Shown here: positions 2,946 to 24,163 of the stretch, in pieces
How the letters are laid out: each line of letters begins with the position of its first letter
How positions within the stretch are numbered: the stretch's first letter is position 1
Source: Nitrospiraceae bacterium
GTDB taxonomy: Bacteria; Nitrospirota; Nitrospiria; Nitrospirales; Nitrospiraceae
Assembly: GCA_050246315.1 (NCBI GenBank)
Contig: JBFWWG010000003.1
Coordinates: forward strand, 96,001-160,000
Direction of reading: 5' to 3'
Length of the DNA: 64,000 nt
Notes under the pieces: generated by a model
Database searches by the model: none
The model's input: the letters and a program-made list of their open reading frames with translations, nothing else
What the model was told of the DNA's origin: nothing
Translations under genes and position numbers: made by a program

Positions 2946-4316
2946 ATGCCCACACCTGAAGACAAGGCCCGCCATACAATCGATCGCATCCTTCATCAAG
3001 CCGGTTGGATTGTTCAGGACCACAGAAGCGCCCATCTTCACGCAGGCCGAGGTGTCGCACTCCGAAACGTTCCCCTCACCAGCGGGCACGGGTTCGCGGA
3101 CTACTTGCTCTATGTCGATGGCAAAGCCGCCGGGGTCATTGAGGCGAAGAAGGAAGGCGTCACGCTGACCGGTGTCGAAGTCCAGGCGGCAAAGTACAGC
3201 GAAGGATTGCCGTTCACCTTGCCGGCCTATACCCGGCCTCTTCCGTTTCTCTACCAAAGCACCGGGATTGAAACCCGGTTCACCAACGGACTTGATCCGG
3301 AACCCCGTAGCCGTCGGACCTTCGCCTTTCACAGACCGGAGACGCTAGCCGAATGGATCGATAAGGCAGGGATCCACTCACCTGGAGCAGCCCGCGAGCA
3401 TACGGCCGCGCTGAAGCGTGAGTCGTACCGCCGCCACTCCACCTTTCGCGGCCTGCTCAGACAATTACCGCCGCTCAAGACCGAAGGTCTCTGGCCCGCA
3501 CAGATCACCGCCATCCAGAACCTCGAAACATCACTTGCGCAGGACCGCCCGCGAGCGCTGATTCAAATGGCCACCGGCAGCGGCAAGACCTTCACCGCCA
3601 TCAATTTCATTTACCGCCTGATCAAGTTCGCCGGGGCCAAGCGCGTGCTGTTCCTCGTCGATCGCGGCAACCTGGGCGATCAGACGTTGAAGGAGTTTCA
3701 GCAGTACGTCTCGCCGTACAACAACTTCAAGTTCACCGAAGAGTTCATCGTCCAGCGGCTCACCAGCAATCAGCTCGACCGCACCGCGCGCGTCTGCATC
3801 GGGACGATCCAGCGCCTCTACTCCATGCTCAAAGGGCGCGAGTTAGCAGAAGAAGATGAAGAGGCTTCCGTGTCCGTTCTCGAACGCCTCTTCAAGAAGC
3901 CAGAACCCATTGACTATAATCCCGCCATTCCCATCGAAACCTTCGACGTCATCGTCACCGATGAATGCCACCGGTCCATCTACAACCTGTGGGCGCAGGT
4001 GTTGGAATACTTCGACGCCTCTCTCATCGGCCTCACCGCCACGCCCAACAAGCAGACTTTCGGGTTCTTCAATCAGAACCTCGTCATGGAATACAACCAC
4101 GAGGAGGCCGTAGCCGACGGTGTGAATGTCAATTACGGCGTGTACCGCATCCGCACCGCCATTACCCAGGCCGGCTCCAAGATCGAAGCCAACCTCACCC
4201 GTGCCGAATGTCTCCGGCAGGCGATTCTGAGTCAGGCTTTTACTGGGAAATTAGTTTGCGTAAATGCCAACAGGGACGGTCGGCAGAGTGCTGACATTAA
4301 GATGGCAAAAGCCTAG
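2946..4316 (+). pseudogene. hsdR: Truncated type I restriction subunit HsdR fused in frame to an HsdS C-terminal tail
   Basis: Nuclease motif ADYLL..IEAKK, Walker A MATGSGKT, DECHR and GLTATP present, second helicase domain absent; ends with NLTRAECLRQAILSQAFTGKLV, typical of the HsdS C-terminus. Confidence 0.85.
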
Positions 4317-4346: not shown

Positions 4347-5135
4347 GTGAGCGAGAATTCAAAAATAGAATGGACTGATGCCACTTGGAACCCGGTTCGA
4401 GGGTGTTCCAAGGTGAGTCCGGGTTGCATGAATTGCTATGCGGAGACGTTCGCGGAGCGTTTTCGCGGTGTGCCCGGCCATCCCTTCGAACAGGGGTTTG
4501 ATCTGCGTCTGGTGCCGGACAAGCTTGCCGAACCCTTGCGTTGGCGAACCCCCAAAATGATCTTCGTCAATTCAATGAGCGATTTGTTCCACGAGCAGGT
4601 TCCCGATGAGTATATCGTCAACGTCGCCCGTGTCATGCGGTTGGCGAACTGGCATACGTATCAGGTCTTGACCAAGCGTTCGGAACGGATGAGAGACCTG
4701 CTCAATCGGAAGCTACAATTTGCCTCCATGCAGCCCAATATCTGGTGGGGGGTGAGCGTCGAAAATAGAAAACATGGCCTCCCGCGCATCGAACAGCTGC
4801 GCGAAGCTCCGGCGCACATCAGATTCTTGTCGATCGAGCCGCTACTTGAAAACCTAGGAACCTTCAGCCTCAAGGAGATTCGTTGGGTGATTGTTGGTGG
4901 AGAAAGTGGCCCTGGTGCGAGACCTATGGCCAAGGAGTGGGTGTTGTCCATCCGTGACTTATGCAGAAAAGCGCAGGTTCCGTTCTTTTTTAAACAATGG
5001 GGTGGTGTCCGGAAGAGTGAAACGGGCAGAACCCTCAATGGAAGAACCTACAACGAATTCCCTGCTCGAAGCACCAGCCCTGTTCCTTCCATCGAAAAGC
5101 TACTTAGTATTCGGGAAGAACTCGAACTCGCATAG
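4347..5135 (+). CDS. DUF5131 / phage Gp37-Gp68 family protein (three-Cys motif, radical-SAM-like)
   Basis: SKIEWTDATWNPVRGCSKVSPGCMNCYA, FVNSMSDLFH, LTKR, FLSIEPLL, WVIVGGESG, FFFKQWGG. Confidence 0.93.
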   Translation: MSENSKIEWTDATWNPVRGCSKVSPGCMNCYAETFAERFRGVPGHPFEQGFDLRLVPDKLAEPLRWRTPKMIFVNSMSDLFHEQVPDEYIVNVARVMRLANWHTYQVLTKRSERMRDLLNRKLQFASMQPNIWWGVSVENRKHGLPRIEQLREAPAHIRFLSIEPLLENLGTFSLKEIRWVIVGGESGPGARPMAKEWVLSIRDLCRKAQVPFFFKQWGGVRKSETGRTLNGRTYNEFPARSTSPVPSIEKLLSIREELELA

Positions 5136-5140
5136 CCTTC

Positions 5141-6217
5141 ATGTCGCCTGAGGACTTCCACGATAAGCCGTTCGATGAGGGTACGCTCACCAAGCTTCAG
5201 ATATTTGAACTTTACGCGCGAGAATGGTTGCCAGTGTTCTTGGCTCCTGAAAAGCCATGGCGCAATGCCATTCATGTATTCGACTTCTTCGCTGGCCCTG
5301 GAACAGATATCCAAAACATTCCCGGCAGTCCACTGAGATTGTTACGACAACTTCAGGAGTATCGGGGAGCCCAGGGGTGGGGGAAAGTCCGCATTCATGT
5401 CCACTTCTATGACGAGGATTCGGGTAAGATTGCCCAGCTTAAACAAAACATTGCTAGTCACGGGCTCCAGCTCCCTAACGTAACTTTCGACATCCAGCCA
5501 TTGCGGTTCGATGATGCCTTTCGGGCTTCCGAATTGACACTGGCGGACTCACAGGCAGCCAAGCTTGTTTTCATCGATCAGACTGGTGTTACGCACGTCA
5601 CGCCCGAGGTGTTTCGCAAGCTGGTGAATGCGCCGACATGTGATTTTCTGTTCTTCCTCTCATCTTCGACACTCCACCGATTTCGTGATCATCCGACCAT
5701 CTGGCAGAAAATTAATCGGCCCGAAGACTACTACCACGTTCATCGTGCAGCTCTTGAGTACTACAGAGGGCTGCTTTCTCCTGGCCAAGAGTATTACCTT
5801 GCTCCGTTTTCAATAAAGAAAGGGGCAAACATTTATGGGCTCATCTTCGGCTCTGCCCACCCGCTTGGCATCGACAAGTTTCTTGAGGTGGTATGGCGTA
5901 AGGATGAATTCAGTGGGGAAGCCGACTTTCCCATCGATCGAGAGAATATTCGCCCCCACCAGCTACTGTTGCCAATGGCCGAGGTTCAGGCGAGCAAAAT
6001 CACGGCTTTCGAAAACGAGCTCGAAAAGCTGCTGAGGGGTGGATGTCTTTCAAGTGAAGTTGATGTTATGAGAGTTTGTTTCGAAAACGGGGTGAAACGG
6101 CAACATGCTAGACCAGTCCTTGCAAAGCTGAAAAAAGAAGGCGTCCTCGATGTAGAGTTCCAGGTTCCAGACGTGCAAAAGATTCGTTCTCCACGACCGA
6201 TTCGTATGAGGAAGTAG
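5141..6217 (+). CDS. tcmP: Three-Cys-motif partner protein (TcmP-like, SAM-binding fold)
   Basis: Directly after DUF5131; TLTKL.IF..Y...W, DFFAGPG, GSPL and VFIDQTG motifs; lower GC than core genes. Confidence 0.8.
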   Translation: MSPEDFHDKPFDEGTLTKLQIFELYAREWLPVFLAPEKPWRNAIHVFDFFAGPGTDIQNIPGSPLRLLRQLQEYRGAQGWGKVRIHVHFYDEDSGKIAQLKQNIASHGLQLPNVTFDIQPLRFDDAFRASELTLADSQAAKLVFIDQTGVTHVTPEVFRKLVNAPTCDFLFFLSSSTLHRFRDHPTIWQKINRPEDYYHVHRAALEYYRGLLSPGQEYYLAPFSIKKGANIYGLIFGSAHPLGIDKFLEVVWRKDEFSGEADFPIDRENIRPHQLLLPMAEVQASKITAFENELEKLLRGGCLSSEVDVMRVCFENGVKRQHARPVLAKLKKEGVLDVEFQVPDVQKIRSPRPIRMRK

Positions 6218-6221
6218 CGGA

Positions 6222-6308
6222 ATGTCTCCCACGTCCCAGATTGTCCAAAAACACTGGAACTCTGCTTGCCTCGTTTCTCTCGGCGCAGACAACTACTGCA
6301 ACGCCCTC
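6222..6308 (+). pseudogene. Degenerate 5' stub of hsdM (stub 1) with a 33-bp hairpin insertion
   Basis: MSPTSQIVQKHWN[ins]YCNAL versus hsdM MNSSAIVQKLWNYCNVL; 6240-6260 is 20/21 identical to 8121-8141 and 6294-6303 is identical to 8142-8151. Confidence 0.85.
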
Positions 6309-6312
6309 CTTA

Positions 6313-6372
6313 CTTGCCGTTCGTGAAGGGGACGATTGGCTTGTGATTACGGTGGTGACCCGTTACTATTGA
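6313..6372 (+). pseudogene. C-terminal remnant of a DUF4258-like toxin
   Basis: LAVREGDDWLVITVVTRYY* immediately upstream of a DUF2283 gene; no start codon. Confidence 0.6.
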
Positions 6373-6398
6373 ACCGTTCGCGCCGTTCAGGAGGCTGT

Positions 6399-6641
6399 AT
6401 GAAACTCACCTACGACCCCCGCTACAACATCGCGTATCTCCGTCTCCATGCCAAGACGGCGGAAGTGGAGACCATTCACGTGAGCGACGAGATTAACATT
6501 GATCTCGCGCCTGACGGCACGGTGTATGGGATCGAACTGCTCAATGCCAACGTGCAACTGGCTCGGGAAGACGCGGGAGAGCTCGTGCTTCAGAACGAGG
6601 CGACCGGCGAACGGACTGCGGTCAAGCTACCGATCGCCTGA
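6399..6641 (+). CDS. DUF2283 family protein (putative antitoxin)
   Basis: MKLTYDPRYNIAYLRL...INIDLAPDGTVYGIELLNA; AGGAGG RBS. Confidence 0.88.
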   Translation: MKLTYDPRYNIAYLRLHAKTAEVETIHVSDEINIDLAPDGTVYGIELLNANVQLAREDAGELVLQNEATGERTAVKLPIA

Positions 6642-6671
6642 GCAGCGTCATTCTTGCCGGAAGTTCGAGCC

Positions 6672-6881
6672 ATGAACGCTCAGATTCGGTTGTCAGATGT
6701 GGTGGCGCTGACCGAGGATATTCCTGATCGCGGTTTACTGTGTGGTCAAGTGGGGACCGTGGTGGAATCGCTCAGGCCTGGTGTCTTTGAAGTGGAGTTC
6801 GTGGACAACGAAGGCAGAACCTATGCCATGCTTCCGCTGAAATCCAGTCAACTGCTCGTGTTGCACTATCAGCCTGCGTGA
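6672..6881 (+). CDS. DUF4926 family protein
   Basis: DVVALTEDIP..GL..GQVGTVVE...FEVEFVDNEGRTYA. Confidence 0.88.
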   Translation: MNAQIRLSDVVALTEDIPDRGLLCGQVGTVVESLRPGVFEVEFVDNEGRTYAMLPLKSSQLLVLHYQPA

Positions 6882-6957
6882 AGGCGTTGCTGCTTCTGTA
6901 TCTCTAGCTGCCCTGATTTTCACGCTCCACGATGTCTCGTTCCCGAGCTGTGATAAC

Positions 6958-7147
6958 ACGAGCCCTTCCGCCATCGTTCAAACACTCTGGAACTACCGCA
7001 ACGTCTTCCGCGACGATGGAATGAGCTATGGCGACTATCATTCGACGCGCTCAGGGCAGGCCCTTCGACGGGTTCGGCAGGCTCACGCCGGCTTGGCTCA
7101 GGACAGGCGTCGAGCAGTTGACGTATCTGCTGTTCCTCAAGGTGGCC
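6958..7147 (+). pseudogene. Degenerate 5' stub of hsdM (stub 2) interrupted by a 70-bp REP-like insertion
   Basis: (ACG)SPSAIVQTLWNYRNVFRDDGMSYGDY[7038-7107]VEQLTYLLFLKVA; 7108-7146 is 37/39 identical to hsdM 8186-8224. Confidence 0.92.
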
Positions 7148-7178
7148 ATGAGCGTGATTCAATGGTTGAGCTGGTCTC

Positions 7179-7526
7179 ATGAAATTGCCCCATGCTGATC
7201 GCCTAGAGATTCCCAAGGCCAAGGTGGTCCAGTATCTCCTCTCTTCGACTCATCGAGCAGGCAGGGGAAAGGCGGGGTTCTTTTCTGCGTGCGGTTTTCA
7301 GGTGTCCAAATGGGATGTGTTGGCACAGGCGCTTCGGCAACACGCAAGGGACAACGTTGTGAGCTTTACTGAAGACATACCGTTTGGCCTCCGCTATGTG
7401 ATCGAAGGACCGCTTGTCGCGCCGAATGGCCGGCAATTGCAAGTTCGGACGGTCCGGTTTATAGATGAGGGTGGTCAGGTACCACGATTTGTGACCGCCT
7501 ATCCCCTCAAACGGAGGATGCCATGA
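7179..7526 (+). CDS. DUF6883-like protein (putative toxin/nuclease)
   Basis: MKLP.A...I...KV..YLL...H..G.GKA.FF...GF...L...L...GPL.APNGR....RFVTAYP. Confidence 0.78.
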   Translation: MKLPHADRLEIPKAKVVQYLLSSTHRAGRGKAGFFSACGFQVSKWDVLAQALRQHARDNVVSFTEDIPFGLRYVIEGPLVAPNGRQLQVRTVRFIDEGGQVPRFVTAYPLKRRMP

Positions 7527-7759
7527 TTCAGGAGTTAGAAGACGTGATTTTGGAGTGTGACCTTCCCAAGCACGACCTGAGGCGTGGCGATATCGGTACC
7601 GTCGTGCTCATTCATCGGGGCGGTGAAGGCTACGAGGTTGAATTTACGACGTTGAATGGCGAGACCGTGGCGGTCGTGACGCTCTTGGCCGCTCAGGTTC
7701 GTCCGGCTCATCAACGTGAAATTGCCCATGCGCGCGAACTGGCCGGGTCCGCATCGTAA
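7523..7759 (+). CDS. DUF4926 family protein (putative antitoxin/immunity)
   Basis: MIQELEDVIL..DLP...L..GDIGTVV.....YEVEF....GETVAVVTL; ATGA overlap with the upstream gene. Confidence 0.88.
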   Translation: MIQELEDVILECDLPKHDLRRGDIGTVVLIHRGGEGYEVEFTTLNGETVAVVTLLAAQVRPAHQREIAHARELAGSAS

Positions 7760-7800
7760 CAGCGCACCCCTTGAACGCTCCTCGTATGAGGAGAAACCAT

Positions 7801-8013
7801 ATGGCCGAAAAAGTGAAAGTCTGGTTCGATCCGGAAGCGGACTATCTCGAAGTGCAGTTCCGTGAGGCGCCTGGCTTCATGCGGGCGACGGCGCACGACG
7901 CGCTCATGGAGCGGGTCGACGAGCAGGGGCATGTGCTGGGCTTCAGCGTCCTTGGCGTGAGCCGTTTCAAAAAGGATCCTCCTCTGGAAGCTGAACTGAT
8001 GACCGGCTTTTAA
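7801..8013 (+). CDS. DUF2283 family protein
   Basis: VKVWFDPEADYLEVQF...MERVDEQGHVLGFSVLGVS; GAGGAG RBS. Confidence 0.82.
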   Translation: MAEKVKVWFDPEADYLEVQFREAPGFMRATAHDALMERVDEQGHVLGFSVLGVSRFKKDPPLEAELMTGF

Positions 8014-8105
8014 GGCGGGGCAGACGAATCTGACCTGTCCGTGAAACTTCCGACTTCATCCCCGCCCTGGCCTGACGACGCTGTTTCAGCGTTATCCGAT
8101 TTCGG

Positions 8106-9599
8106 ATGAACTCCTCCGCCATTGTCCAAAAACTCTGGAACTACTGCAACGTCCTGCGTGACGACGGGATGAGCTACGGCGACTACGTCGAACAGTTGAC
8201 GTATCTGCTGTTCCTCAAGATGGCGGACGAGAGGACGAAGCCGCCCTACAACCAACCGAGCCCGATCCCCGACAAGTACAGTTGGCAGAGCTTGCTCAAG
8301 AAAGACGGCGACGAACTCTTTGACCACTATCGCCACAGTCTGGAAAAGCTCGGCAACGAGAAGGGTTTGCTCGGCCTGATCTTCAACAAGTCGCAAAATA
8401 AGTTCCAAGATCCCGCCAAACTGCGCCGGCTCATAGTGGACTTAATCGACAGGGAAGACTGGTCGGCGATGAGCGCCGACGTGAAGGGCGATGCGTACGA
8501 AGGCCTGCTCCAAAAGAACGCCGAGGACGTGAAGGGTGGGGCCGGCCAATACTTCACGCCGCGTCCGCTCATTGCCGCAATGGTGGACTGTGTGGCTCCA
8601 AAACCGGGCGAGACGATCTGTGATCCGGCCTGTGGGACCGGCGGCTTCTTGCTGGCCGCGCACGATTATGTGGTGAAGCACAATCCGAATCTGACCAAGC
8701 TTCAGAAGAAGAAGCTGAAGGAAGAAACGCTCAAAGGCTACGAGTTGGTCCAGAGTGTCGTCCGTCTCTGCGCCATGAATCTGCTCTTGCATGGGATTGG
8801 CTCGCAGGAGGACGAGCCTATTGAGGCAGCGGATTCACTCGCCTCCGATCCCGGCGAACGGTTCAACCTCGTACTGACCAATCCACCGTTCGGCAAGAAG
8901 AGCAGCTACACGGTCGTCGGGCAGGAAGGCGAAGTCTCGAAGGAGCGGGAGACCTACGAGCGCGACGACTTTTGGGCGACCACTTCCAATAAACAACTGA
9001 ATTTCGTCCAGCATGTGAAGACCATCCTTGCAGTCAATGGCCGCGCGGCGGTCGTTGTGCCGGACAACGTGCTCTTTGAAGGTGGGGCAGGCGAGACGGT
9101 GCGGCGCAAGTTGCTGCATGATTGCGACGCACACACGTTGCTGCGTCTCCCAACCGGGCTTTTTTACGCCCAAGGCGTCAAGGCGAACGTGCTCTTCTTC
9201 GACAAGAAACCGGCGAGCGAAACACCCTGGACCAAGAACCTCTGGATCTACGATCTTCGCACCAACCAACACTTCACACTCAAGACCAACCCGCTCAAGC
9301 GAGAAGATTTGGACGAGTTTGTGAAATGCTACAACCCGGCGAATCGACACGAACGAAAAGCCACCTGGTCAGAAAAGAAGTCAGACGGCCGCTGGCGCGC
9401 TTACGCCTACGACGAGCTGATCGCCCGCGATAAAGCCAGCCTCGACATCTTTTGGCTCAAAGACGAATCCCTCGAAGCCTCCGACAACCTCCCAGATCCC
9501 GACGTGATCGCCCAGGAGATCGTGGACGATCTGGAGTCAGCCTTGGACCAGTTCAGGCTGATAACCAATGATCTTGGCACAGAACCGCACAGTTCATAG
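8106..9599 (+). CDS. hsdM: Type I restriction-modification N6-adenine methyltransferase subunit
   Basis: GQYFTPR, DPACGTGGFL, NPPF, VVPDNVLF; full length, 497 aa. Confidence 0.95.
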   Translation: MNSSAIVQKLWNYCNVLRDDGMSYGDYVEQLTYLLFLKMADERTKPPYNQPSPIPDKYSWQSLLKKDGDELFDHYRHSLEKLGNEKGLLGLIFNKSQNKFQDPAKLRRLIVDLIDREDWSAMSADVKGDAYEGLLQKNAEDVKGGAGQYFTPRPLIAAMVDCVAPKPGETICDPACGTGGFLLAAHDYVVKHNPNLTKLQKKKLKEETLKGYELVQSVVRLCAMNLLLHGIGSQEDEPIEAADSLASDPGERFNLVLTNPPFGKKSSYTVVGQEGEVSKERETYERDDFWATTSNKQLNFVQHVKTILAVNGRAAVVVPDNVLFEGGAGETVRRKLLHDCDAHTLLRLPTGLFYAQGVKANVLFFDKKPASETPWTKNLWIYDLRTNQHFTLKTNPLKREDLDEFVKCYNPANRHERKATWSEKKSDGRWRAYAYDELIARDKASLDIFWLKDESLEASDNLPDPDVIAQEIVDDLESALDQFRLITNDLGTEPHSS

Positions 9600-9790
9600 G
9601 GAACCCGGAAGCGGTACCGGAACGCTTTGCATACCGTAGAAAAGGTACCGGGAGTCTTTGTCATCACACAGGGCCTGCAAGCGAACAGTGCAAACCTCGT
9701 CCGCCTTCGGAGCCTGTGGATCCGACGCCCGTGATCCTGGCAGTGACCGGTCCTCACTGCAATTGCTTGTAGATCCGAAAATCGTTTCTC

Positions 9791-9997
9791 TTAGGCCTCC
9801 ACCGTAACCGTCTTGATCGCGGCTTTGATCTTCGACACCACCTCCGGCGGAGGGGCGGACATCTTGTGCGCCACCTTGGCATGGTCGCCCGTCAACCGCA
9901 TCACCTCATCTTCCGTCTCAGCCCGCACCATGAACGCACACCCTCCATTGGGGTCTACATCGAGACAACCAAGTTGTTTGTAGGTTTTCTTGGCCAT
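9791..9997 (-). CDS. DUF1059 small metal-binding protein
   Basis: C.D.....C.F.VRAETEDEVM....HAK..H; AGGAGG RBS. Confidence 0.82.
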   Translation of the reverse strand: MAKKTYKQLGCLDVDPNGGCAFMVRAETEDEVMRLTGDHAKVAHKMSAPPPEVVSKIKAAIKTVTVEA

Positions 9998-10039
9998 GAC
10001 GACCTCCTGTCGGTAAAAGGTGGGGACACCGGAATTGCT

Positions 10040-10177
10040 CTAGCAGACTGCGGAAAACCCTCCGTTCATCCTTCGAGGACCTCAGGACGAACGGAGCGGT
10101 GATTGAATAGACTGGTGTTTTCCGATCGTGCTGAGCCTGTCGCAGCACACAAATCGAGTTGTTCCGTCGCCTGCCAG
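10040..10177. repeat. MITE/REP-like intergenic element
   Basis: Imperfect TIR ctagcagactgcggaaaa / ttgttccgtcgcctgccag; internal hairpin ctccgttcatcct...aggacgaacggag plus a gtgctgagcctgtcg unit. Confidence 0.7.
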
Positions 10178-10464
10178 ACTCGGATTCGATCTGGTTGATG
10201 AGGACCGGTCGCGCACGATCCGAAAGATGCTAGACCGTCCGTGTGGAGCAGTCAAGACTACGTAGCCTGATTGTCAGGTCCAAGTCGCAATGTCCGGTTC
10301 AATGTTCCGGCTGCCGCTGGCTGTGGTCCTCGTTCCGACGTCCATCGCTGACGCCATGGATGTTCCGCCGCTAGCGTGATTTGGCGCCGTGATCGCCGGC
10401 CGGAGCCTCTGCCGCGTAGGCGGGCTGCGCCGCCGCAGGATACTTGGATGACTTCTGTCCGAAC

Positions 10465-10902
10465 TCAGTCGCTTGTTCGAAGGGGAGGGGAATCGTGAAG
10501 GGAGGCAGTTGAAATGGGACTCGCGTTCGTTCGATCCTTCGCCCGGCCGGTCGCCGCATCGACCTTTCGTCCGATCCCATATGCCGTCATGGCCCAGCAG
10601 CCGGCTACGAAGATGACGTGGAACAGAACATCGCTCCAAGGTCCGAGGAGATAGCCTTCGTCCGCACCCTGGGTGTATCCAAGGAGAAGGGTCAAAACGC
10701 CCACCGTCAGCCAACGAGTTCCGGCGAGTGTGGCCGCCCGATCGAGCTTGTCACGGTCCTCCGGACTCACTTCCGAATCAGGAGACGGCCGGGCGTTGAG
10801 CCACTTCCAATCGATAGGCGCCCGCTTTCGCCGGTGCAGAAACGCCAGCCCCCCAACGGATACGAGAGTTCCCAGCAGGATCAGATCAAAGGTGCTGAGC
10901 AC
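10465..10902 (-). CDS. Hypothetical membrane protein
   Basis: Three hydrophobic segments; GAGGAG upstream of the GTG start. Confidence 0.6.
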   Translation of the reverse strand: MLSTFDLILLGTLVSVGGLAFLHRRKRAPIDWKWLNARPSPDSEVSPEDRDKLDRAATLAGTRWLTVGVLTLLLGYTQGADEGYLLGPWSDVLFHVIFVAGCWAMTAYGIGRKVDAATGRAKDRTNASPISTASLHDSPPLRTSD

Positions 10903-11239
10903 AAGACGCTCCTCACAGGAGATCGGCCACCAGACGAATCCGACTCAGAACTGAGGAATCAGAAACTGAGGAATCGAACGGCGGGAATGGACGGCAGGCG
11001 TGACAACATGAGACTCACGATACCCTGACCATCGGCCTCGCTTGGACCGACGCACGGTACAACAAACGGCACGTCTGAAACAAGCGGTCCGGCTGATCCA
11101 ATAGGGTCCGGGGCACCGCCGACCCCGTCCACCGTCGGCCGGCTTGACGTTCGACCACATTGCGCGTAGCGTAGGGACGGCTGTCGGTCGGTTGACCCAT
11201 CCTTTTTCCCTGGCTTCTTGGATGAAAGGGGGTACGACG

Positions 11240-11476
11240 ATGCTGCCCTCCCACCTCTCCATCATTGAATCGCTCCACGGCGAAACGCGGCAAACCTTCT
11301 ACGATCAACACACGTCGCTCGCCCACGTGATGCACGCGGGCTTGCTCCTGCTTCCTCTCGCCGGGCTGTTGCTCAGGGGCACGGTCGGCGCGGTCTTGGG
11401 CTTGACGCTGTTCATTCTGTGTTATTACCTCCTGCCCTTCGTGTGGTTCGCGACGCACGACAGTCGCCGCCACTGA
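11240..11476 (+). CDS. Small hypothetical membrane protein
   Basis: AAGGGGG RBS; two hydrophobic helices. Confidence 0.6.
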   Translation: MLPSHLSIIESLHGETRQTFYDQHTSLAHVMHAGLLLLPLAGLLLRGTVGAVLGLTLFILCYYLLPFVWFATHDSRRH

Positions 11477-14127: not shown

Positions 14128-14302
14128 GCGCTCTCAGAAGCCGGATGGGTTCGGATACCCTACTTGGTTTAGGGCCTGTCGTAAAGCAGGCGATCGATCG
14201 CCTCTTGACTCCTTGACACCCTTTTGAAGACAGCCTAGCCTTTGGCCCCAAGTGGCAATGAATCGGTTGAGTGAACGCGTATCAACCGTGGAAAGGACGA
14301 GG

Positions 14303-17053: not shown

Positions 17054-18421
17054 ATGGTTGAAGTACCCGTCAAGATGTATCTCTCCAGCCTCCTCAAGAA
17101 AGCGCGTGAATCCGTCACGCCCATGGCTCTGCTCTCGGGACCGGTGAAGGAGGCCACCCTTCGGACTGTGGCCGGACTGATCGCCGAACGAACCGAAGAC
17201 CTCTTGGCCGCCAACCAGGCAGATGTCCTGGCTGTCGGCAAGAGCCTCGAAGGCGAGAAGGATAAGGACCGGGTCAAGGCGGCGGTGAATCGCGTCAGGC
17301 TAACGGAGGATGACCTGAAGCTGATGGCCGACCGGATGCAGCGGGTGGCGGACCTCGACGATCCGGTGGGTCAGGTGCTCGAACAGGCGGAGCGGCCAAA
17401 CGGCATGCAGGTCCGGCGGGTCCGAGTTCCCATCGGGATGCTCGGGATCATCTCGGAGTTGAACCCCAATACCACCATGGAGATCCTGGCGCTCTGCTTC
17501 AAGGCCGGCAACGTGTCGGTGTTTCGCGGCGCGCCCGAATGGGCCGCCACCCACAAGGCGTTGGCGGCCCTGTTGCGGGAAGCAGGGGAGGAGCACCGGA
17601 TTCCGGCGGCGGCCCTCACCCTGATCGATCGACCCGAAAAGGACGTGGCACTGGAACTGATGCGCGCCACCCGGCAACAGATCGATGCGCTGATCGTGCG
17701 CGGGGGAGCGGGGCTCCGTAAGGCCGTGGCCGAGACGTCCCGACTCCCGATTCTCTGCCATGACGGGGCGGTCAATCATCTGTACATCGACGGCGATGTG
17801 GACATTCCAATGGCGCAGAACCTCATCGTCAACGCGAAGGCCCAGCAGCCTTCGGAGCCCAGTTCCGTCGATACGGTCCTGGTCCAGCAAAACATCGCGC
17901 GTCAGTTCCTCCCGGCTCTGATCCGTCGGCTGTTGGATGAATTCCACGTGGACGTCCTCGGCTGTCCCAAGACGGTCGCCATGATCGGGGCTCAACAACT
18001 GCCGCAATACCGGAACCTGGTCCCTGCTGCGGAGGAGGATTGGGGTAGGCAATTTGTTTCGCCGACCCTCGCGGTCAGGATGGTGAAGGATCTGGACGAG
18101 GCCCTGGCACATATTGCGCAGTACGGGACCGGCCATACCGTTGCGATCGCGACGCGCGACTATGCCCATGCCATGCGGTTCATCCGCGAGGTGGACGCGG
18201 CAGCGGTACTGGTCAACGCCTCGTCGCGGTTGCACAGCGGCGAAGAGTTCGGATTGGGCGGCGATGTCGGGCTCAGCTCGTCACGGTTGCATGCCAGGGG
18301 CCCCATCGGTCTTGAGGGTTTGACCACTCTCAAATACGTCGTGCTCGGCAGCGGCCAGTTACGCCATCCGCATCCGGTCCCGACGGCCTACGAAGATGCG
18401 ATCATGTTGAAGCGGTTTTGA
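17054..18421 (+). CDS. Gamma-glutamyl phosphate reductase (ProA)-like protein with degenerate active site
   Basis: L.DPVG....RPNG....RVP.G, LHARGPIGLEGLTT.KY; the CNAxET segment is replaced by PSSVDT. Confidence 0.85.
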   Translation: MVEVPVKMYLSSLLKKARESVTPMALLSGPVKEATLRTVAGLIAERTEDLLAANQADVLAVGKSLEGEKDKDRVKAAVNRVRLTEDDLKLMADRMQRVADLDDPVGQVLEQAERPNGMQVRRVRVPIGMLGIISELNPNTTMEILALCFKAGNVSVFRGAPEWAATHKALAALLREAGEEHRIPAAALTLIDRPEKDVALELMRATRQQIDALIVRGGAGLRKAVAETSRLPILCHDGAVNHLYIDGDVDIPMAQNLIVNAKAQQPSEPSSVDTVLVQQNIARQFLPALIRRLLDEFHVDVLGCPKTVAMIGAQQLPQYRNLVPAAEEDWGRQFVSPTLAVRMVKDLDEALAHIAQYGTGHTVAIATRDYAHAMRFIREVDAAAVLVNASSRLHSGEEFGLGGDVGLSSSRLHARGPIGLEGLTTLKYVVLGSGQLRHPHPVPTAYEDAIMLKRF

Positions 18422-20227: not shown

Positions 20228-22129
20228 ATGCGTGTTGAGTATTCCAAGGGCGATCGTGCCTCCAAGGAGCTGATCCAGCTCCATCGCCGGACCTCCTTCC
20301 AGGCCACCGGTCGGAAGATGAAGGTCATGTTGATCTTCCCTCCCGACTGGTTTCCCTCCGAACCGTACCTGAGCCTTCCCTCCCTCACCTCCGTCCTCCG
20401 CCAAGCCGGCCACACCGTCGTCCAAAAAGACGTCAACCTCGAGATGTGGGACTGGTATTTCAGCGAAAGCTTTCTGAAGAAGGTCCTCCGCCGGGTGCCC
20501 CAACAGTTGGACCGGTTTCGCAAGCTCTCCAGAAAACGCGAGTTGGCCGAGTGGGAGATGGATGTCCAGGTGGCGCTGTGTGATGTGACTCGGCAGCGGA
20601 TCGACGAGCTGATCAAGAAGGCCGAGCAGGCCAAGCGCATCGTGAGAGAGGAAGATAACTTCTACGATATCGATAAGTTGGAATGGGCCATTCAAGTTTT
20701 CCGTGAAGTCACGCAGGTCATCTCGCTGGTCTATTCGCCGGCCCGAATTTGCATGCCGCCGATGGAGACGGATCTCTCCTACAAGCCCTATGTCTCGACC
20801 GAAATCATGGACGCGGTGGAGGACGAACAGGTCAACATCTACCGCGACGTGTTCGAGCACCTGGTCAAGCCGGCAATCGAGGAGCATCGGCCGGACGTGG
20901 TCGGTATCTCCATCGTGCTCCAGCAGCAAATCTTCTCCTCGATGACCTTCTGCGCCTTGATCAAGAAACAGTTCCCTCAGATTCATGTGACGATCGGCGG
21001 CAACACGGTCACGCGCCTCCGGGACGTGCTGCCCGAGTCGCCGCTGTTTCAATATTTCGACAGCGTGGTGGTGTATGAAGGGGAGACGGCGTTCGTACAA
21101 CTGGTCGAAGCGGTGGGTGCCAAGAGAGATCTTTCCGACGTCCCCAATACCATCTACAAGGACGACCAGGGTGTGCATGTCTCGACCACCAGCTATGCCG
21201 AAGACATGGCCGCGCTGCCGCCTCCCGATTTCGACGGGTTGCCGCTAGAGACATATTTCACGCCGACCAAGATATTGCCGTACCTCGCGACGCGCGGCTG
21301 TTACTGGGGCCGCTGTGAGTTCTGCGACCACGGCGAAGGGTACACGGCCGGCTACCGGTCGAAGAAAATCCAGGACGTGCTGGCGGACATCCAGCACCTC
21401 AAAGACAAATACGGCGCCCGACATTTCCACTTTACCGACGAATCCTATCCGCCGGCCCTTTTCCGCAAGCTCGCGCGCGGTCTCATCGAGAACAAGATGG
21501 ACATCTTCTGGACGACCCATATGCGGTTCGAGAAGAGTCTCTTGGAGGAGGGCGTCTGGGAAGACGCGAAGAACTCCGGCTGCCGCTATCTCCACTTCGG
21601 GTACGAGTCGGGCAACGAGCGGGTGCTCAAGCTGATGGACAAGGCCACGACGACGGAAGTGATGGCCAGGCATCTCAAATACACGGCGGAGGCGGGCATC
21701 TGGAACCACTGTATGGGTTTCTTCGGCTTTCCGGGAGAAACGAGAGAGGAAGCCTGGCAGTCAGTGCAGTTCCTGGAGCAGAACAAGGACCATGTCCATT
21801 CGCTGGGCTTCGGCACGTTCGATCTCGGCCGGCACAACCCCGTGGCCAAGCATCCGGGACGATGGGGGGTGACGCCCTATAGGAATCCGGATTGGGATCT
21901 GGCGCTCGACTATTACTTCACCGTGAAGGAAGGGTTGAGCATCGAAGAGGCGGAACGGGTGTTCCAGGAATTCGAACGAAATCATTACGCAGGATGGGAC
22001 CTGCGCCTCTATGTCCGGGAGTATATTTTCCTTTATATTTGCCGGTTCGGGCTGAAGAAGTTGCCGCATCTGCAATACCAGGCGGCGAAGACTCTGGGCC
22101 ATACGCCGACGCTGGCGGGGAAGATGTGA
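20228..22129 (+). CDS. B12-binding radical SAM enzyme (paralog 1)
   Basis: N-terminal cobalamin-binding domain (PDVVGIS, IGGN, YEGE) and RGCYWGRCEFC (CxxxCxxC). Confidence 0.92.
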   Translation: MRVEYSKGDRASKELIQLHRRTSFQATGRKMKVMLIFPPDWFPSEPYLSLPSLTSVLRQAGHTVVQKDVNLEMWDWYFSESFLKKVLRRVPQQLDRFRKLSRKRELAEWEMDVQVALCDVTRQRIDELIKKAEQAKRIVREEDNFYDIDKLEWAIQVFREVTQVISLVYSPARICMPPMETDLSYKPYVSTEIMDAVEDEQVNIYRDVFEHLVKPAIEEHRPDVVGISIVLQQQIFSSMTFCALIKKQFPQIHVTIGGNTVTRLRDVLPESPLFQYFDSVVVYEGETAFVQLVEAVGAKRDLSDVPNTIYKDDQGVHVSTTSYAEDMAALPPPDFDGLPLETYFTPTKILPYLATRGCYWGRCEFCDHGEGYTAGYRSKKIQDVLADIQHLKDKYGARHFHFTDESYPPALFRKLARGLIENKMDIFWTTHMRFEKSLLEEGVWEDAKNSGCRYLHFGYESGNERVLKLMDKATTTEVMARHLKYTAEAGIWNHCMGFFGFPGETREEAWQSVQFLEQNKDHVHSLGFGTFDLGRHNPVAKHPGRWGVTPYRNPDWDLALDYYFTVKEGLSIEEAERVFQEFERNHYAGWDLRLYVREYIFLYICRFGLKKLPHLQYQAAKTLGHTPTLAGKM

Positions 22130-22201
22130 TCTCGCAACGCGCTGGGTATTGAGTTCAGGGATTGTTTCACGGGTGATGATTGACGTTGGACGGATGACGA
22201 G

Positions 22202-24163
22202 ATGAGCACAGGCGGCTTCATTCAAATCGACGGCCTCGCCCCATTGGCCAAGGAGGCACGGAAGCAGTCGAAGGTCATGCTGCTGTTTCCTCCCGAGTGG
22301 GTGCCGACCGCGCCCTACCTCGCGCTGCCAAGCCTGACCGCCGTGCTTCGACAAGCCGGCCACACCGTCGTCCAGCGGGACATCAATATCGAGATGTACG
22401 ATCACTTCTTTACGACCGAGTTCATGGTCTGGGTCAGAGCCCGACAGACCATGCAGTTCAAGGCTCTGCAGATGAAAGCGAAGCGGGGAGAACTGACGGA
22501 CCAGGAGGCCGGCCAGTTGTCCGTGCTGGAACAACTCATGGCGATCGACGTCTTCGATCTTGCGGCGCGCGCCGAGGAGGCGAAACACGTTGTCCGCAGC
22601 GAGCTCTTTTACGAGGCCGACGGGCTCGAACGGGCGCTCAACACGTTCCGCGAGGTGATGCAGTACATCTCCGCCGCCTATTTCCCCGCCTCGCTGGTGT
22701 TCTATCCAATGGAAAGCAATCTGGGCTACCGGCCGGGTGTCTCGAAAGAAGTCTTCGCGTGTTTGGACGACGAGCAGGTGAATGTCTACCGCGATATCTG
22801 TCATCAGCTCGTGCTGCCGTCGGTGAGCAAGGAGAAGCCGGACGTGGTCGGCGTGTCGATCGGGACGCAGATGCAATTGATCGCGGGACTGACGTTCTGC
22901 AAGATGATCAAGGAGACATTCCCGCACGTGCACGTGGTGGTCGGCGGCAACGTCATCACCAGGCTCCAGGAAGAGTTGCCGAGACATACGAGGCTGTTCA
23001 CGGACGTCTTTGATTCGGCCATTCTTTATGAAGGGGAACATGCCCTGCTTTGGCTCATCGAAGCGTTGAACGGCCAGCGTGACCTTGCGACGGTACCCAA
23101 TCTGATGTACCGGACCGTCGCGGGCATTCACCAGAATCGGGAGATCTACACCGAGAAGACGACGGCGTTGCCGATTCCGGACTTCGACGGCCTCCCGCTC
23201 GACCTCTATTTCGTACCGGAGCGGATCATTCCCTATCTCGCGACACGCGGCTGCTATTGGGGTCGCTGTACGTTCTGCGACCACGGCCAGGGCTATTTCG
23301 ATCAGTACCGAGGGATGACGGCTTCACTCGTCGTGGAGCAGGTGAAGGCCCTGCGCGACAAGTATCGGTGCCGACACTTCCTGTTCGCCGATGAGTCTTA
23401 TCCGCCCGCGTTGTTCAAGAAGGTATCGCAATTGCTCGTGGATCAGGATGTGGGAATCAGATGGACGACCTTGATCCGCTTTGAGGAGACGCTCCAGGAC
23501 CAGGCGATCTGGGACCTTGCCGCGAAGGCCGGATGCTGCACGCTCTATTACGGCATGGAGTCGGCGAATGAACGTGTTCTGAACCTCATGGACAAGCATG
23601 CCAAGAAGAGCGTCATCGAGAGGAATCTGCATCTGGCGGCGAAGGCGGGCATCTGGAACCATGTCATGGCCTTCTACGGCTTCCCCGGTGAGACGCGCGA
23701 AGAGGCGCTGGAGACCAGGCAGTTCGTGCTCGACAACCAGCCGGTGATCCATTCAGTCGAGCTGTTCTACTTTGTGGCCTACCGGCACACGGCGATGGTG
23801 CGCAACCCCGAGAAGTTCGGTATCACGATTCACAAGCAGGAGGAATACGACCTTCCGCTGGACTATTACTACACGCTGAACGAACCGGTGGGAATTTCGT
23901 GCCTCGATGCGATGCAGCTCTGCGAGGAATTCTATCGAAACGATTTCCAGCCCTGGGCCGTGCGCGTGAACGCGCGCGAGCATGTGTTCCTCTACATCTC
24001 CAAGTTCGGCACAAACAAGCTGCCGCAGATTTATGCGCAGCAGCAAACGGTGGGCTCATCCGATCGCGTGTCGGGATTGGTGACATGGCCGGTTTCGGTC
24101 GGTGAGAACGAGGAGGGAAAGGAAACGCTGAGCCGAGTAATGAGCCACGGCGCGGGAGAGTAA
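22202..24163 (+). CDS. B12-binding radical SAM enzyme (paralog 2)
   Basis: Same architecture, RGCYWGRCTFC; colinear with paralog 1. Confidence 0.92.
   Translation: MSTGGFIQIDGLAPLAKEARKQSKVMLLFPPEWVPTAPYLALPSLTAVLRQAGHTVVQRDINIEMYDHFFTTEFMVWVRARQTMQFKALQMKAKRGELTDQEAGQLSVLEQLMAIDVFDLAARAEEAKHVVRSELFYEADGLERALNTFREVMQYISAAYFPASLVFYPMESNLGYRPGVSKEVFACLDDEQVNVYRDICHQLVLPSVSKEKPDVVGVSIGTQMQLIAGLTFCKMIKETFPHVHVVVGGNVITRLQEELPRHTRLFTDVFDSAILYEGEHALLWLIEALNGQRDLATVPNLMYRTVAGIHQNREIYTEKTTALPIPDFDGLPLDLYFVPERIIPYLATRGCYWGRCTFCDHGQGYFDQYRGMTASLVVEQVKALRDKYRCRHFLFADESYPPALFKKVSQLLVDQDVGIRWTTLIRFEETLQDQAIWDLAAKAGCCTLYYGMESANERVLNLMDKHAKKSVIERNLHLAAKAGIWNHVMAFYGFPGETREEALETRQFVLDNQPVIHSVELFYFVAYRHTAMVRNPEKFGITIHKQEEYDLPLDYYYTLNEPVGISCLDAMQLCEEFYRNDFQPWAVRVNAREHVFLYISKFGTNKLPQIYAQQQTVGSSDRVSGLVTWPVSVGENEEGKETLSRVMSHGAGE

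Follow-up and report, generated by a model that had tools for sequence, protein, structure and literature searches.

Repeated hsdM 5' stubs as probable recombination scars in the cargo region of a type I restriction operon from a Nitrospiraceae bacterium

In a stretch of 64,000 nt from a Nitrospiraceae bacterium (the window), the start of the methylase gene hsdM occurs three times, twice as a stub followed by small genes and once in the intact gene. Our reading, to which we give a probability of roughly 0.75, is that this array consists of passive scars of recombination in that part of a type I restriction operon where the cargo varies, with hsdM as homologous anchor and an illegitimate left joint, and that no dedicated system is involved. 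Where a preliminary description of the window had suspected an undescribed system, we see scars left by recombination of a general kind. Observed directly were the stubs with their polarity and recurrence, the former neighbours that they retain, the absence of an integrase and a related genome (G061) in which the window's hsdM start is itself displaced. The molecular steps are inferred, whether one-sided homology plus an illegitimate joint or break repair or a template switch to the same effect.

Results

The locus contains the following features:

2946-4316, + strand: hsdR/hsdS remnant, N-terminal ~415 aa of hsdR in an in-frame fusion to the last ~40 aa of hsdS
4347-6217, + strand: cargo read as the oldest, DUF5131 gene (4347-5135, Pfam E 7e-100) and 358-aa partner gene (5141-6217)
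6222-6308, + strand: stub 1, hsdM codons 1 to ~17, broken by a decayed insert
~6311-6372, + strand: toxin tail, last ~20 codons of a gene cut at the joint with stub 1
6396-6881, + strand: cargo 1, DUF2283 (6396-6641) and DUF4926 (6672-6881) genes (Pfam), a 91% identical block in G061
6882-6957, + strand: spacer, formerly directly 5' of an intact hsdM start
6958-7154, + strand: stub 2, hsdM nt ~1-80, a 70-nt insert and hsdM nt 81 to ~127, start codon lost
7179-8013, + strand: cargo 2, DUF6883 (7179-7526) and DUF4926 (7523-7759) pair and a lone DUF2283 gene (7801-8013) (Pfam)
8106-9599, + strand: intact hsdM, 497 aa, Pfam HsdM_N and N6_Mtase (E 4e-69 and 3e-14)

A search of its own genome found the intact hsdM to be the sole copy of its family; a DUF1059 gene lies 3' of it on the opposite strand. 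When a 21-nt word from the hsdM 5' end was searched with at most 3 mismatches, the window gave three matches, all on the + strand, and 100 shuffles gave none, which confirms the three co-oriented starts of the preliminary description. Stub 1 has its ATG at 6222 and agrees with the intact gene in two pieces (21 of 22 nt at 6240-6261 and 16 of 17 nt at 6291-6307), which are separated by a decayed, palindrome-like insert of 30-33 nt (~6261-6293). Clearer orthologues of this stub are found directly 3' of the same upstream gene in locus L006, where it ends at ~nt 75 and has a 33-nt palindrome, and in genome G077, where it ends at ~nt 78 and has no insert. The first part of stub 2 (6967-7037) is identical to hsdM nt 10-80 at 61 of 71 positions and the second (7108-7146) to nt 81-119 at 37 of 39, the latter figure as in the preliminary description, and the homology probably extends to ~7154. 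Between them lie 70 nt (7038-7107) that are not hsdM and form about three GC-rich units of ~24 nt. Insert site and stub end are identical in L061, L010, G061 and G139, and L014 carries one in-frame unit of ~24 nt in its stub and also in its intact hsdM. Window positions 6882-7038 align with DNA lying 5' of, and entering, the intact hsdM of L021 (78.5%) and G049.

Pfam agrees with the small cargo genes listed earlier for each stub. For the 358-aa partner of the DUF5131 gene, putatively 'TcmP-like', Pfam gave a weak GMT-wHTH match and nothing more; the same gene pair followed by an hsdM stub is also present in L006 and G077. That the first cargo gene after stub 1 is cut mid-gene is borne out by G061, in which an intact version of 82 aa with a weak DUF4258 match (E 0.0012, 19.6 bits against a Pfam cut-off of 25) is located directly 3' of hsdS. 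An intact toxin gene, as in a DUF4258/DUF2283 pair, is missing 5' of DUF2283 in the window, where ~20 codons are left, and neither the DUF2283 nor the DUF4926 gene of cargo 1 has an intact partner toxin. In cargo 2 of G139, a further stub separates the DUF4926 gene from the DUF2283 gene. Window cargo also occurs directly 5' of hsdM, as the preliminary description had led one to expect, or directly 3' of hsdS in other genomes (L021, L025, G077, G061).

Operons of this hsdM family have the order hsdR-hsdS-cargo-hsdM. In the window the 3' half of hsdR and most of hsdS are deleted, leaving a fusion with Pfam ResIII/HSDR_N matches, in whose tail residues 1-29 match the hsdR of relatives and residues 13-51 match hsdS C-termini. 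Of HsdR the locus holds the N-terminal ResIII part alone, the EcoEI_R_C domain being absent genome-wide, and of HsdS nothing beyond ~40 C-terminal residues; the only Methylase_S matches in the genome are at two other loci on contig C1. Because hsdR is truncated and fused to the hsdS tail, the restriction system at this locus is, judged from its sequence, defunct, and the intact hsdM now stands there without an hsdS or hsdR partner.

The stubs are not unique to this assembly. Of 64 related loci with 1 kb or more of upstream sequence, 17 carry them, and extra N-terminal matches, upstream and on the same strand, were found in 12 of the 25 Nitrospiraceae genomes with an intact hsdM of the family; the complete one-contig genomes G077 and G139 are among those with hsdM stubs. 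A set of 74 non-redundant metagenome stretches yielded 26 stubs in 25 loci, along with 35 intact copies and 26 indeterminate cases. With HsdM residues 1-60 as query we obtained 30 extra matches, 28 upstream and 2 downstream, all on the strand of the gene; later 60-aa windows gave 6, 5, 1, 1, 1, 0 and 1, and six shuffled or reversed controls gave none. Nearly all stubs begin with codon 1 or close to it. Stub-cargo-stub arrays with variable cargo, the pattern proposed in the preliminary description, recur in related loci, genomes and metagenome stretches, and the repeated hsdM fragments, each with a displaced module, are ordered away from the intact gene. The cargo in relatives includes DarTG, Fic, AbiE, CBASS-like genes, SIR2-HerA, Hachiman-like genes, ApeA and MNT-HEPN, and of 69 Pfam-annotated cargo ORFs all but one share the strand of hsdM. 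Contrary to what had been suggested, stubs farther from the intact gene are not regularly more divergent (3 of 7 arrays).

In G061 homology to the window begins within the toxin gene at 6314, with 91% identity over 6314-6881. The same stub 2 follows. Next come cargo 2 and hsdM nt 1-79, which share 96% identity with window 7443-8184; this hsdM start is a displaced stub in G061. There the window array is extended by two more cassettes on the right, followed by a divergent intact hsdM. This comparison of sequences supports serial displacement. The leftmost stub is common to three genera and everything to the right of it differs. When the upstream flanks of 27 stubs were compared with those of intact hsdM genes from other genomes, 8 matched, and three of these matches are colinear up to the start codon (L008/L007 with DarG, L025/L006 and L005, L055/L060). 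The earlier idea of serial capture at hsdM is upheld in part, by recurrence, retained neighbours and the G061 extension, whereas the illegitimate joint, at which no clear microhomology is seen, is a matter of interpretation. As cargo 1, stub 2 and cargo 2 are also found as a block in G061, they probably arrived in the window genome en bloc, and the array order is therefore not the strict local record of acquisition for which it had been taken. Most likely, a G061-like block (cut toxin, DUF2283, DUF4926, stub 2, DUF6883-DUF4926, DUF2283, hsdM) landed at nt ~52 of the hsdM or hsdM stub after the DUF5131 pair, and the loss of the hsdR 3' half and hsdS most likely took place after this landing in the present genome.

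Stub ends are spread over hsdM nt 44-462 (codons 17-262 in the metagenome stubs). They are uneven, with clusters near codons 17-21, 26-35 and 43-54, some of which go back to shared descent of a joint (L020a/L156, L131/L137, window/G061/G139), and some site preference may exist. At the joint between stub 1 and the toxin tail, the only one for which both parental sequences are available, microhomology amounts to at most ~2 nt (5 nt in an alternative alignment). In L025 a, a candidate for the joint is an 8-nt GCGACGAC repeat. None of the cargo regions contained a second copy of the hsdS tail, consistent with an anchor that lies solely in the long, conserved hsdM.

Small GC-rich inserts near the ends of about ten stubs are not predicted by a simple scar model. 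One type (E1) is a palindrome of ~33 nt at hsdM nt 52/53 and 60/61, the other (E2) consists of 24-nt units at nt 80/81. One or other of them is separated from the stub end by 8-47 nt in window stubs 1 and 2, L006 A and B, L008 b, L010, L061, L025 a and G061 stubs 1 and 3, as well as in the metagenome stubs of L122, L152, L171, L142 and L165. Such inserts could set the breakpoint by inactivating hsdM, by blocking heteroduplex extension or by being cut as hairpins, upon which an incoming 5' end would rescue the gene and the stub would end just past the insert. This idea refines the origin from recombination scars and does not replace it. The position of the inserts and the genome-wide rarity of E1 (by its strict pattern 0 copies in the window genome and 4 in G002, 2 of them inside hsdM stubs) speak in its favour, but we consider it unlikely, as the stub after the DUF5131 pair has an insert in L006 and the window and none in G077, so that at least there the insert is later than the stub. 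Moreover, most stubs outside Nitrospirota have no such insert, and in-frame copies occur inside the apparently intact hsdM of L014, L008 and G061.

For four stubs (L014, L023, L055, L074) the closest of the sampled alleles is that of their own locus, at 92-97% identity, and the L014 stub also shares 91 nt of upstream flank. These four also fit local duplication or gene conversion and count against recombination scars as their origin. For the window, however, a local tandem duplication of the hsdM 5' region and upstream DNA with subsequent decay and unrelated insertions is disfavoured and very improbable: the cargo blocks between the hsdM copies are mutually unrelated, stub flanks match intact-gene flanks in other genomes, and 10 of 65 other alleles are closer to window stub 2a than its own gene is (85.9% identity). 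The stubs of L007, L061 and G061 are likewise nearer to other alleles, those of G061 showing 70-74% identity to their own hsdM versus 92-95% to others.

The clustering of stub ends at few positions and the ordered, co-oriented arrays resembling integron cassettes might also be explained by site-specific integration at an hsdM 5' attachment site, either integron-like or by tandem integrative elements, catalysed in trans. To this we give hardly any credence, as stub ends are spread over more than 400 nt, with no constant crossover core duplicated at every border, and cargo genes can be cut mid-gene. In agreement with the integrase-free array described earlier, integrase and resolvase domains are absent from all 143 cargo ORFs of 19 loci (one IS110 transposase was found) and no integrase domain was detected among the window ORFs scanned. 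The cargo sides of the joints share no motif as judged by eye, and the window has no attC-like inverted repeats, only chance-level inverted pairs of 14-16 nt that lie far apart.

The array region 5900-8500 is held by 20 runs from 7 studies, which may include the source sample, and independent contigs from 4 studies reproduce the array; run X13 has a copy-number variant of the stub 2 insert units. An assembly artefact from the conserved hsdM 5' repeat has a negligible probability: the short-read contigs of X7 and X13 do break at the repeated hsdM pieces, and only there, but single contigs span 5900-8500 in X2 and 5900-8153 in X11 with 0 differences and the complete genomes G077 and G139 carry such arrays.

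Discussion

If the array was formed as recombination scars, incoming DNA carrying cargo and an hsdM start from a related locus would pair with the resident, highly conserved hsdM as homologous anchor, and its non-homologous left end would be joined illegitimately within the first ~50-460 nt of the resident gene. The cell would still have a full-length hsdM, albeit one whose 5' end is new, and the old start would be left upstream as a stub along with older cargo. Repetition, en-bloc transfer of entire arrays, deletions and homologous exchange between the hsdM repeats could then produce stub-cargo-stub arrays whose oldest parts lie nearest to hsdS. A point against this origin is that classical homology-facilitated illegitimate recombination usually replaces recipient DNA and does not duplicate the anchor end. 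Further points against it are the uneven spread of stub ends and the near lack of microhomology where stub 1 meets the toxin tail. The comEC gene, from which natural transformation had been suggested, is indeed present (61163-63787) but says nothing on the entry route of the DNA, which we infer, as we do any selective value.

It could also be possible, although we regard this as rather speculative, that the extremely conserved first ~130 nt of the hsdM family serve as a docking arm of general use, independent of any recombinase. Cassettes of defence and toxin-antitoxin genes would then travel with the hsdM start between distantly related bacteria, dock through homology and displace the resident start and older cargo in the upstream direction, resulting in ordered, readable defence arrays, and the small palindromic or tandem inserts (nt 52, 60, 80) would help to set the breakpoint.

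These findings bear on how defence genes enter restriction operons and on how defence islands grow without mobile-element genes. Each stub is a datable footprint of a single acquisition event that gives the growth direction of the array, the previous neighbour of the gene and sometimes a donor-like arrangement in another genome. As stubs are both informative and frequent within this hsdM family, being present in about a quarter to half of the sampled loci, they can be mined at scale in order to reconstruct cassette traffic. For annotation, they account for short 'hsdM-like' ORFs and cut toxin genes in such islands.

Comparison with known systems

Integron arrays (IntI, attI, attC) share with the present array the ordered, co-oriented small cassettes and new entries beside a fixed point. 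Here, in contrast, integrase and attC-like sites are lacking, borders vary and cassettes can start mid-gene, and we found no evidence of excision or a common promoter as in integrons. In the type I loci of Campylobacter jejuni, 'rlo' genes are located between hsdR, hsdS and hsdM, so that R-S-M order and variable intervening genes are the same as in the hsdM family studied here. Homology-facilitated illegitimate recombination has reportedly been described in naturally transformable bacteria by de Vries/Meier and Wackernagel and by Prudhomme et al. in 2002. As in our proposal, one-sided homology lets foreign DNA be captured, but the products seen here duplicate the anchor end and show no clear microhomology at the joints. 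Our literature searches found no paper on hsdM 5' stub scars.

Defence genes embedded in type I restriction-modification operons have been described by Payne et al. (bioRxiv 10.1101/2024.01.29.577857), and there, as here, defence and toxin-antitoxin genes are co-oriented between hsd genes. Systems with pseudogenes were left out of that study, and a text search of the preprint gave none of the terms 'remnant', 'truncat' or 'homologous recombination'; the repeated hsdM 5' stubs and their bearing on cargo acquisition are, relative to that text, particular to the present work.

A further likeness is to the effector-immunity arrays of the V. cholerae T6SS, for which Kirchberger et al. 2017 (PMC5361080), in the sections we draw on, describe sequential displacement, together with the orphan modules of Rhs/CDI loci, and propose a homologous anchor with an illegitimate second joint for the T6SS arrays and Rhs loci. 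As far as those sections go, in both cases a conserved gene part acts as anchor, displaced modules pile up in order without an integrase, and protective genes outlast cut toxins, namely immunity genes in T6SS/Rhs arrays and antitoxin-like genes here. The polarity is mirrored, with 5' stubs upstream here and 3' orphans downstream there, and, unlike in the T6SS/Rhs arrays as presented in that part of the paper, the anchor here is a restriction methylase gene with cargo that is unrelated to the anchor's function.

Results and Discussion

Upstream of its intact hsdM the window carries two leftover starts of the same gene, stub 1 (6222-6308) and stub 2 (6958-7154), each followed by a block of small genes (cargo 1 and cargo 2). 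A 21-nt hsdM word, allowing up to three mismatches, is found at three places in the window, always on the + strand, and not once in 100 shuffles. The relevant features are:

2946-4316, +, ORF fusing the N-terminal part of hsdR in frame to the C-terminal ~40 residues of hsdS
6222, +, ATG of stub 1, directly 3' of the preceding gene's stop
6240-6261 and 6291-6307, +, pieces of stub 1, matching hsdM at 21/22 and 16/17 positions and separated by an insert of 30-33 nt
6967-7037, +, first piece of stub 2, matching hsdM nt 10-80 at 61/71 positions
7038-7107, +, foreign insert in stub 2, 70 nt
7108-7146, +, second piece of stub 2, matching hsdM nt 81-119 at 37/39 positions
8106-9599, +, intact hsdM, 497 aa with HsdM_N and N6_Mtase domains

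The genome contains one hsdM of this family, next to two other hsdM-like genes at 28–30% identity. Regarding the small genes, we found the same cargo as the preliminary description, including its toxin tail after stub 1, which is real since in another Nitrospiraceae genome (G061) an 82-aa gene stands intact at this place, the homology to the window beginning at 6314. This 82-aa gene is a weak match to DUF4258, and the identity of the tail came solely from a DNA search of the family genomes: BLASTP against the DUF4258 protein of the related locus L010 gave no alignment, and tblastn over 80 related loci and the own genome revealed no relatives. A search of 5800-10400 against Rfam (E up to 0.1) gave no match. 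Three putative antitoxin-like genes (DUF2283 twice, DUF4926 once; 6396-6881 and 7801-8013) stand without a partner toxin, and DUF6883-DUF4926 is the one complete pair in the array. Elsewhere in the window and unrelated to the array, two paralogous B12-binding radical SAM genes (633 and 653 aa) adjoin each other at 20228-24160.

Mis-assembly, raised as a possible explanation in the preliminary description, can be dismissed: the array stretch is present in 20 runs from seven studies, which may include the source sample, and in four runs from four studies that we compared one contig covers 5900-8500 and another 5900-8153, each with 0 differences, while the remaining contigs break solely at the repeated hsdM pieces.

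In order to see how often such stubs occur we searched the best 80 of 601 confirmed relatives of the locus by tblastn. HsdM residues 1-60 gave 30 extra matches in 19 loci (window counted), all on the strand of the gene and 28 of them upstream, and five shuffled queries and one reversed query gave no match. The later 60-residue windows of HsdM gave 6, 5, 1, 1, 1, 0 and 1 extra matches, some of which continue long stubs, are fragments of a single frameshifted gene or come from other methylases. Both downstream matches, the only such cases seen, belong to locus L067, where hsdM (10001-11353) lacks its first 42 codons and N-terminal fragments lie at 14248-14289 and 17784-17840. Of the 64 loci whose upstream sequence reaches 1 kb or more, 17 carry a stub. 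Among 150 Nitrospiraceae species representatives and the own genome, 25 carry an intact hsdM of this family, and in 12 of these, two complete one-contig genomes among them, further N-terminal matches lie shortly before the gene on its own strand. Scanning metagenome contigs for an exact pattern added 74 non-redundant stretches, in which 35 copies are intact, 26 run off the contig and 26 are stubs, the stubs falling in 25 loci. Stub-bearing loci come from Nitrospirota, several Pseudomonadota and Poribacteria, among others, and the recurrence expected in the preliminary description is thus borne out.

All related loci share the order hsdR, hsdS, variable cargo, hsdM. Judged from the hsdR-hsdS fusion, the absence of an EcoEI_R_C domain from the own genome and the presence of hsdS only at two other loci, the restriction system of the window is dead and hsdM its survivor. 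A deletion of roughly 3.5–4 kb behind the fusion killed the system and spared hsdM. The complete genome G024, from the genus of the window's organism, shares the downstream flank of the window and has lost the intact hsdM; its syntenic site (L094, 10663-12018) still holds a DUF4926-like gene and two stubs of hsdM.

The cargo between hsdS and hsdM was analyzed in 19 loci (143 ORFs, 69 with Pfam matches). It includes DarT paired with a DarG-like Macro-domain protein, Fic, AbiEi/AbiEii, patatin + SMODS, SIR2 + HerA, HamA + helicase, ApeA-HEPN, MNT/HepT, Zeta, RES, RhuM, PIN and HicB, as well as DUF6883-DUF4926, DUF4258 and DUF2283. As many as 68 of the 69 annotated ORFs lie on the hsdM strand. 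No integrase or resolvase was found among the 143 ORFs, in line with the integrase-free array proposed before, and the single transposase is an IS110.

Comparison between genomes shows that each stub retains the former upstream neighbour of its gene. For 8 of 27 stubs the upstream flank matches what flanks an intact hsdM in a different genome; in three cases the two are colinear up to the start codon, as for DarT-DarG-hsdM in L007 and DarT-DarG-stub in L008. The spacer before stub 2 of the window can be aligned to the sequence preceding the intact hsdM of L021 and G049. Furthermore, a stub following a DUF5131 pair is common to the window, L006 (genome G002) and G077, representing three genera, and everything to its right differs. 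The most informative relative is G061, with the following order:

1. hsdR, hsdS
2. intact toxin gene, DUF2283, DUF4926; 91% identity to window 6314-6881
3. two extra small ORFs
4. stub sharing insert and end with stub 2 of the window
5. DUF6883 (with a deletion), DUF4926, DUF2283 and hsdM nt 1-79, ending as a stub
6. MNT-HEPN pair
7. third stub
8. DUF6883-DUF4926 fusion
9. divergent intact hsdM

Block 5 shares 96% identity with window 7443-8184, yet it breaks off at hsdM nt 79, so that the present hsdM start of the window is a displaced stub in G061, and newer cassettes stand on the hsdM side of this displaced start. The stubs of G061 show 70–74% identity to its own gene and 92–95% to other alleles. 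As the two genomes share cargo 1, stub 2 and cargo 2, these probably entered the window locus together with hsdM as one block. Its left joint would lie at nt ~52 of hsdM, or of an hsdM stub, following the DUF5131 pair, and would have cut the donor toxin gene. In a further genome, G139, the DUF4926 and DUF2283 genes of cargo 2 are separated by an additional stub, and therefore stubs are also lost or gained within blocks.

The best-supported mechanism is a one-sided homologous recombination with the long conserved hsdM as anchor, an illegitimate joint within the first 44–462 nt of hsdM, and selection for a complete hsdM, at least as long as the restriction system was active; the old start would be stranded as a stub. 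No mirror-image hsdS 3' stubs were found in the cargo, which fits an anchor in hsdM only. No clear microhomology emerged at the joints, and the sequence data fit strand invasion with homology-facilitated illegitimate recombination, break repair by end joining and the Campbell-type entry, through a single crossover, of a circularised fragment equally. ComEC (61163-63787), previously taken to make natural transformation plausible, is no evidence on the route of DNA entry. The proposed rise of stub divergence with distance was not confirmed, as identity falls away from the intact gene in only three of seven arrays with at least two stubs; nor would a foreign origin of the newest 5' end predict such a gradient. 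In L014, L023, L055 and L074, where the nearest allele of the stubs is the own gene, part of the pattern may stem from local duplication or gene conversion.

Stub ends cluster near codons 17–21, 26–35 and 43–54, partly because joints have spread by shared descent (L020a/L156, L131/L137, L025a/L122, L006B-C/L152 and window/G061/G139) and partly because tblastn alignments stop at small GC-rich inserts of two types. E1 is a palindrome of ~33 nt (arms CTGCCTGC / GCAGGCAG) that occurs in both orientations and, in several stubs, sits at hsdM nt 52/53 or 60/61; its copies include:

window 6261-6293
L006 1978-2010 and 2995-3027
G061 (L093, reverse strand), stub 3
L008 about 11297-11328

E2 consists of one to three units of ~24 nt (CCTTCGAC...GCTCAGGACAGGC) at hsdM nt 80/81, with about three in the insert of stub 2. 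In about ten stubs E1 or E2 lies 8–47 nt short of the stub end, and such inserts may help to set break points. E1 is rare elsewhere, and its strict-pattern counts (own genome 0, G002 4, G061 1, G139 0, G077 0) rule out an abundant REP-like repeat in these five genomes; of the four G002 copies two belong to stubs, and an hsdM of another family contains a variant. E2-like units occur at six other places of the own genome (listed are C1:182.4 kb, C1:288.5 kb, C11:4 kb, C15:65 kb and C16:61 kb). The units of the stub 2 insert belong to a dispersed short repeat, and their number differs among genomes and inside one metagenome run. Apparently intact hsdM genes also carry in-frame copies, namely E1 behind 'PPY' in both G061 and L008 and, in L008, also close to the 3' end, and one E2 unit in L014. 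As the G077 orthologue of stub 1 has no insert, at least the insert of stub 1 is secondary. A separate tandem repeat (~17-nt unit, GGGAAAACAAAGGGGTC) follows the first stub of L008 at 7953-8000.

Conclusion

In summary, hsdM stub arrays are real, frequent and useful as a footprint of cargo acquisition, yet they are no dedicated system: the undescribed system suspected in the preliminary description is best read as a recurring scar of a known kind of process. Defence genes embedded in type I operons are already known (bioRxiv 10.1101/2024.01.29.577857); that study left out pseudogenes, and a search of its text finds neither 'remnant' nor 'truncat' nor 'homologous recombination'. In the literature searched we found no description of repeated hsdM 5' stubs. 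The same process has been put forward for effector-immunity arrays of T6SS and for orphan modules of Rhs loci (PMC5361080). T6SS arrays keep orphan immunity genes, which the lone putative antitoxin-like genes of the window resemble, and the hsdM arrays mirror the T6SS/Rhs pattern on the 5' side.
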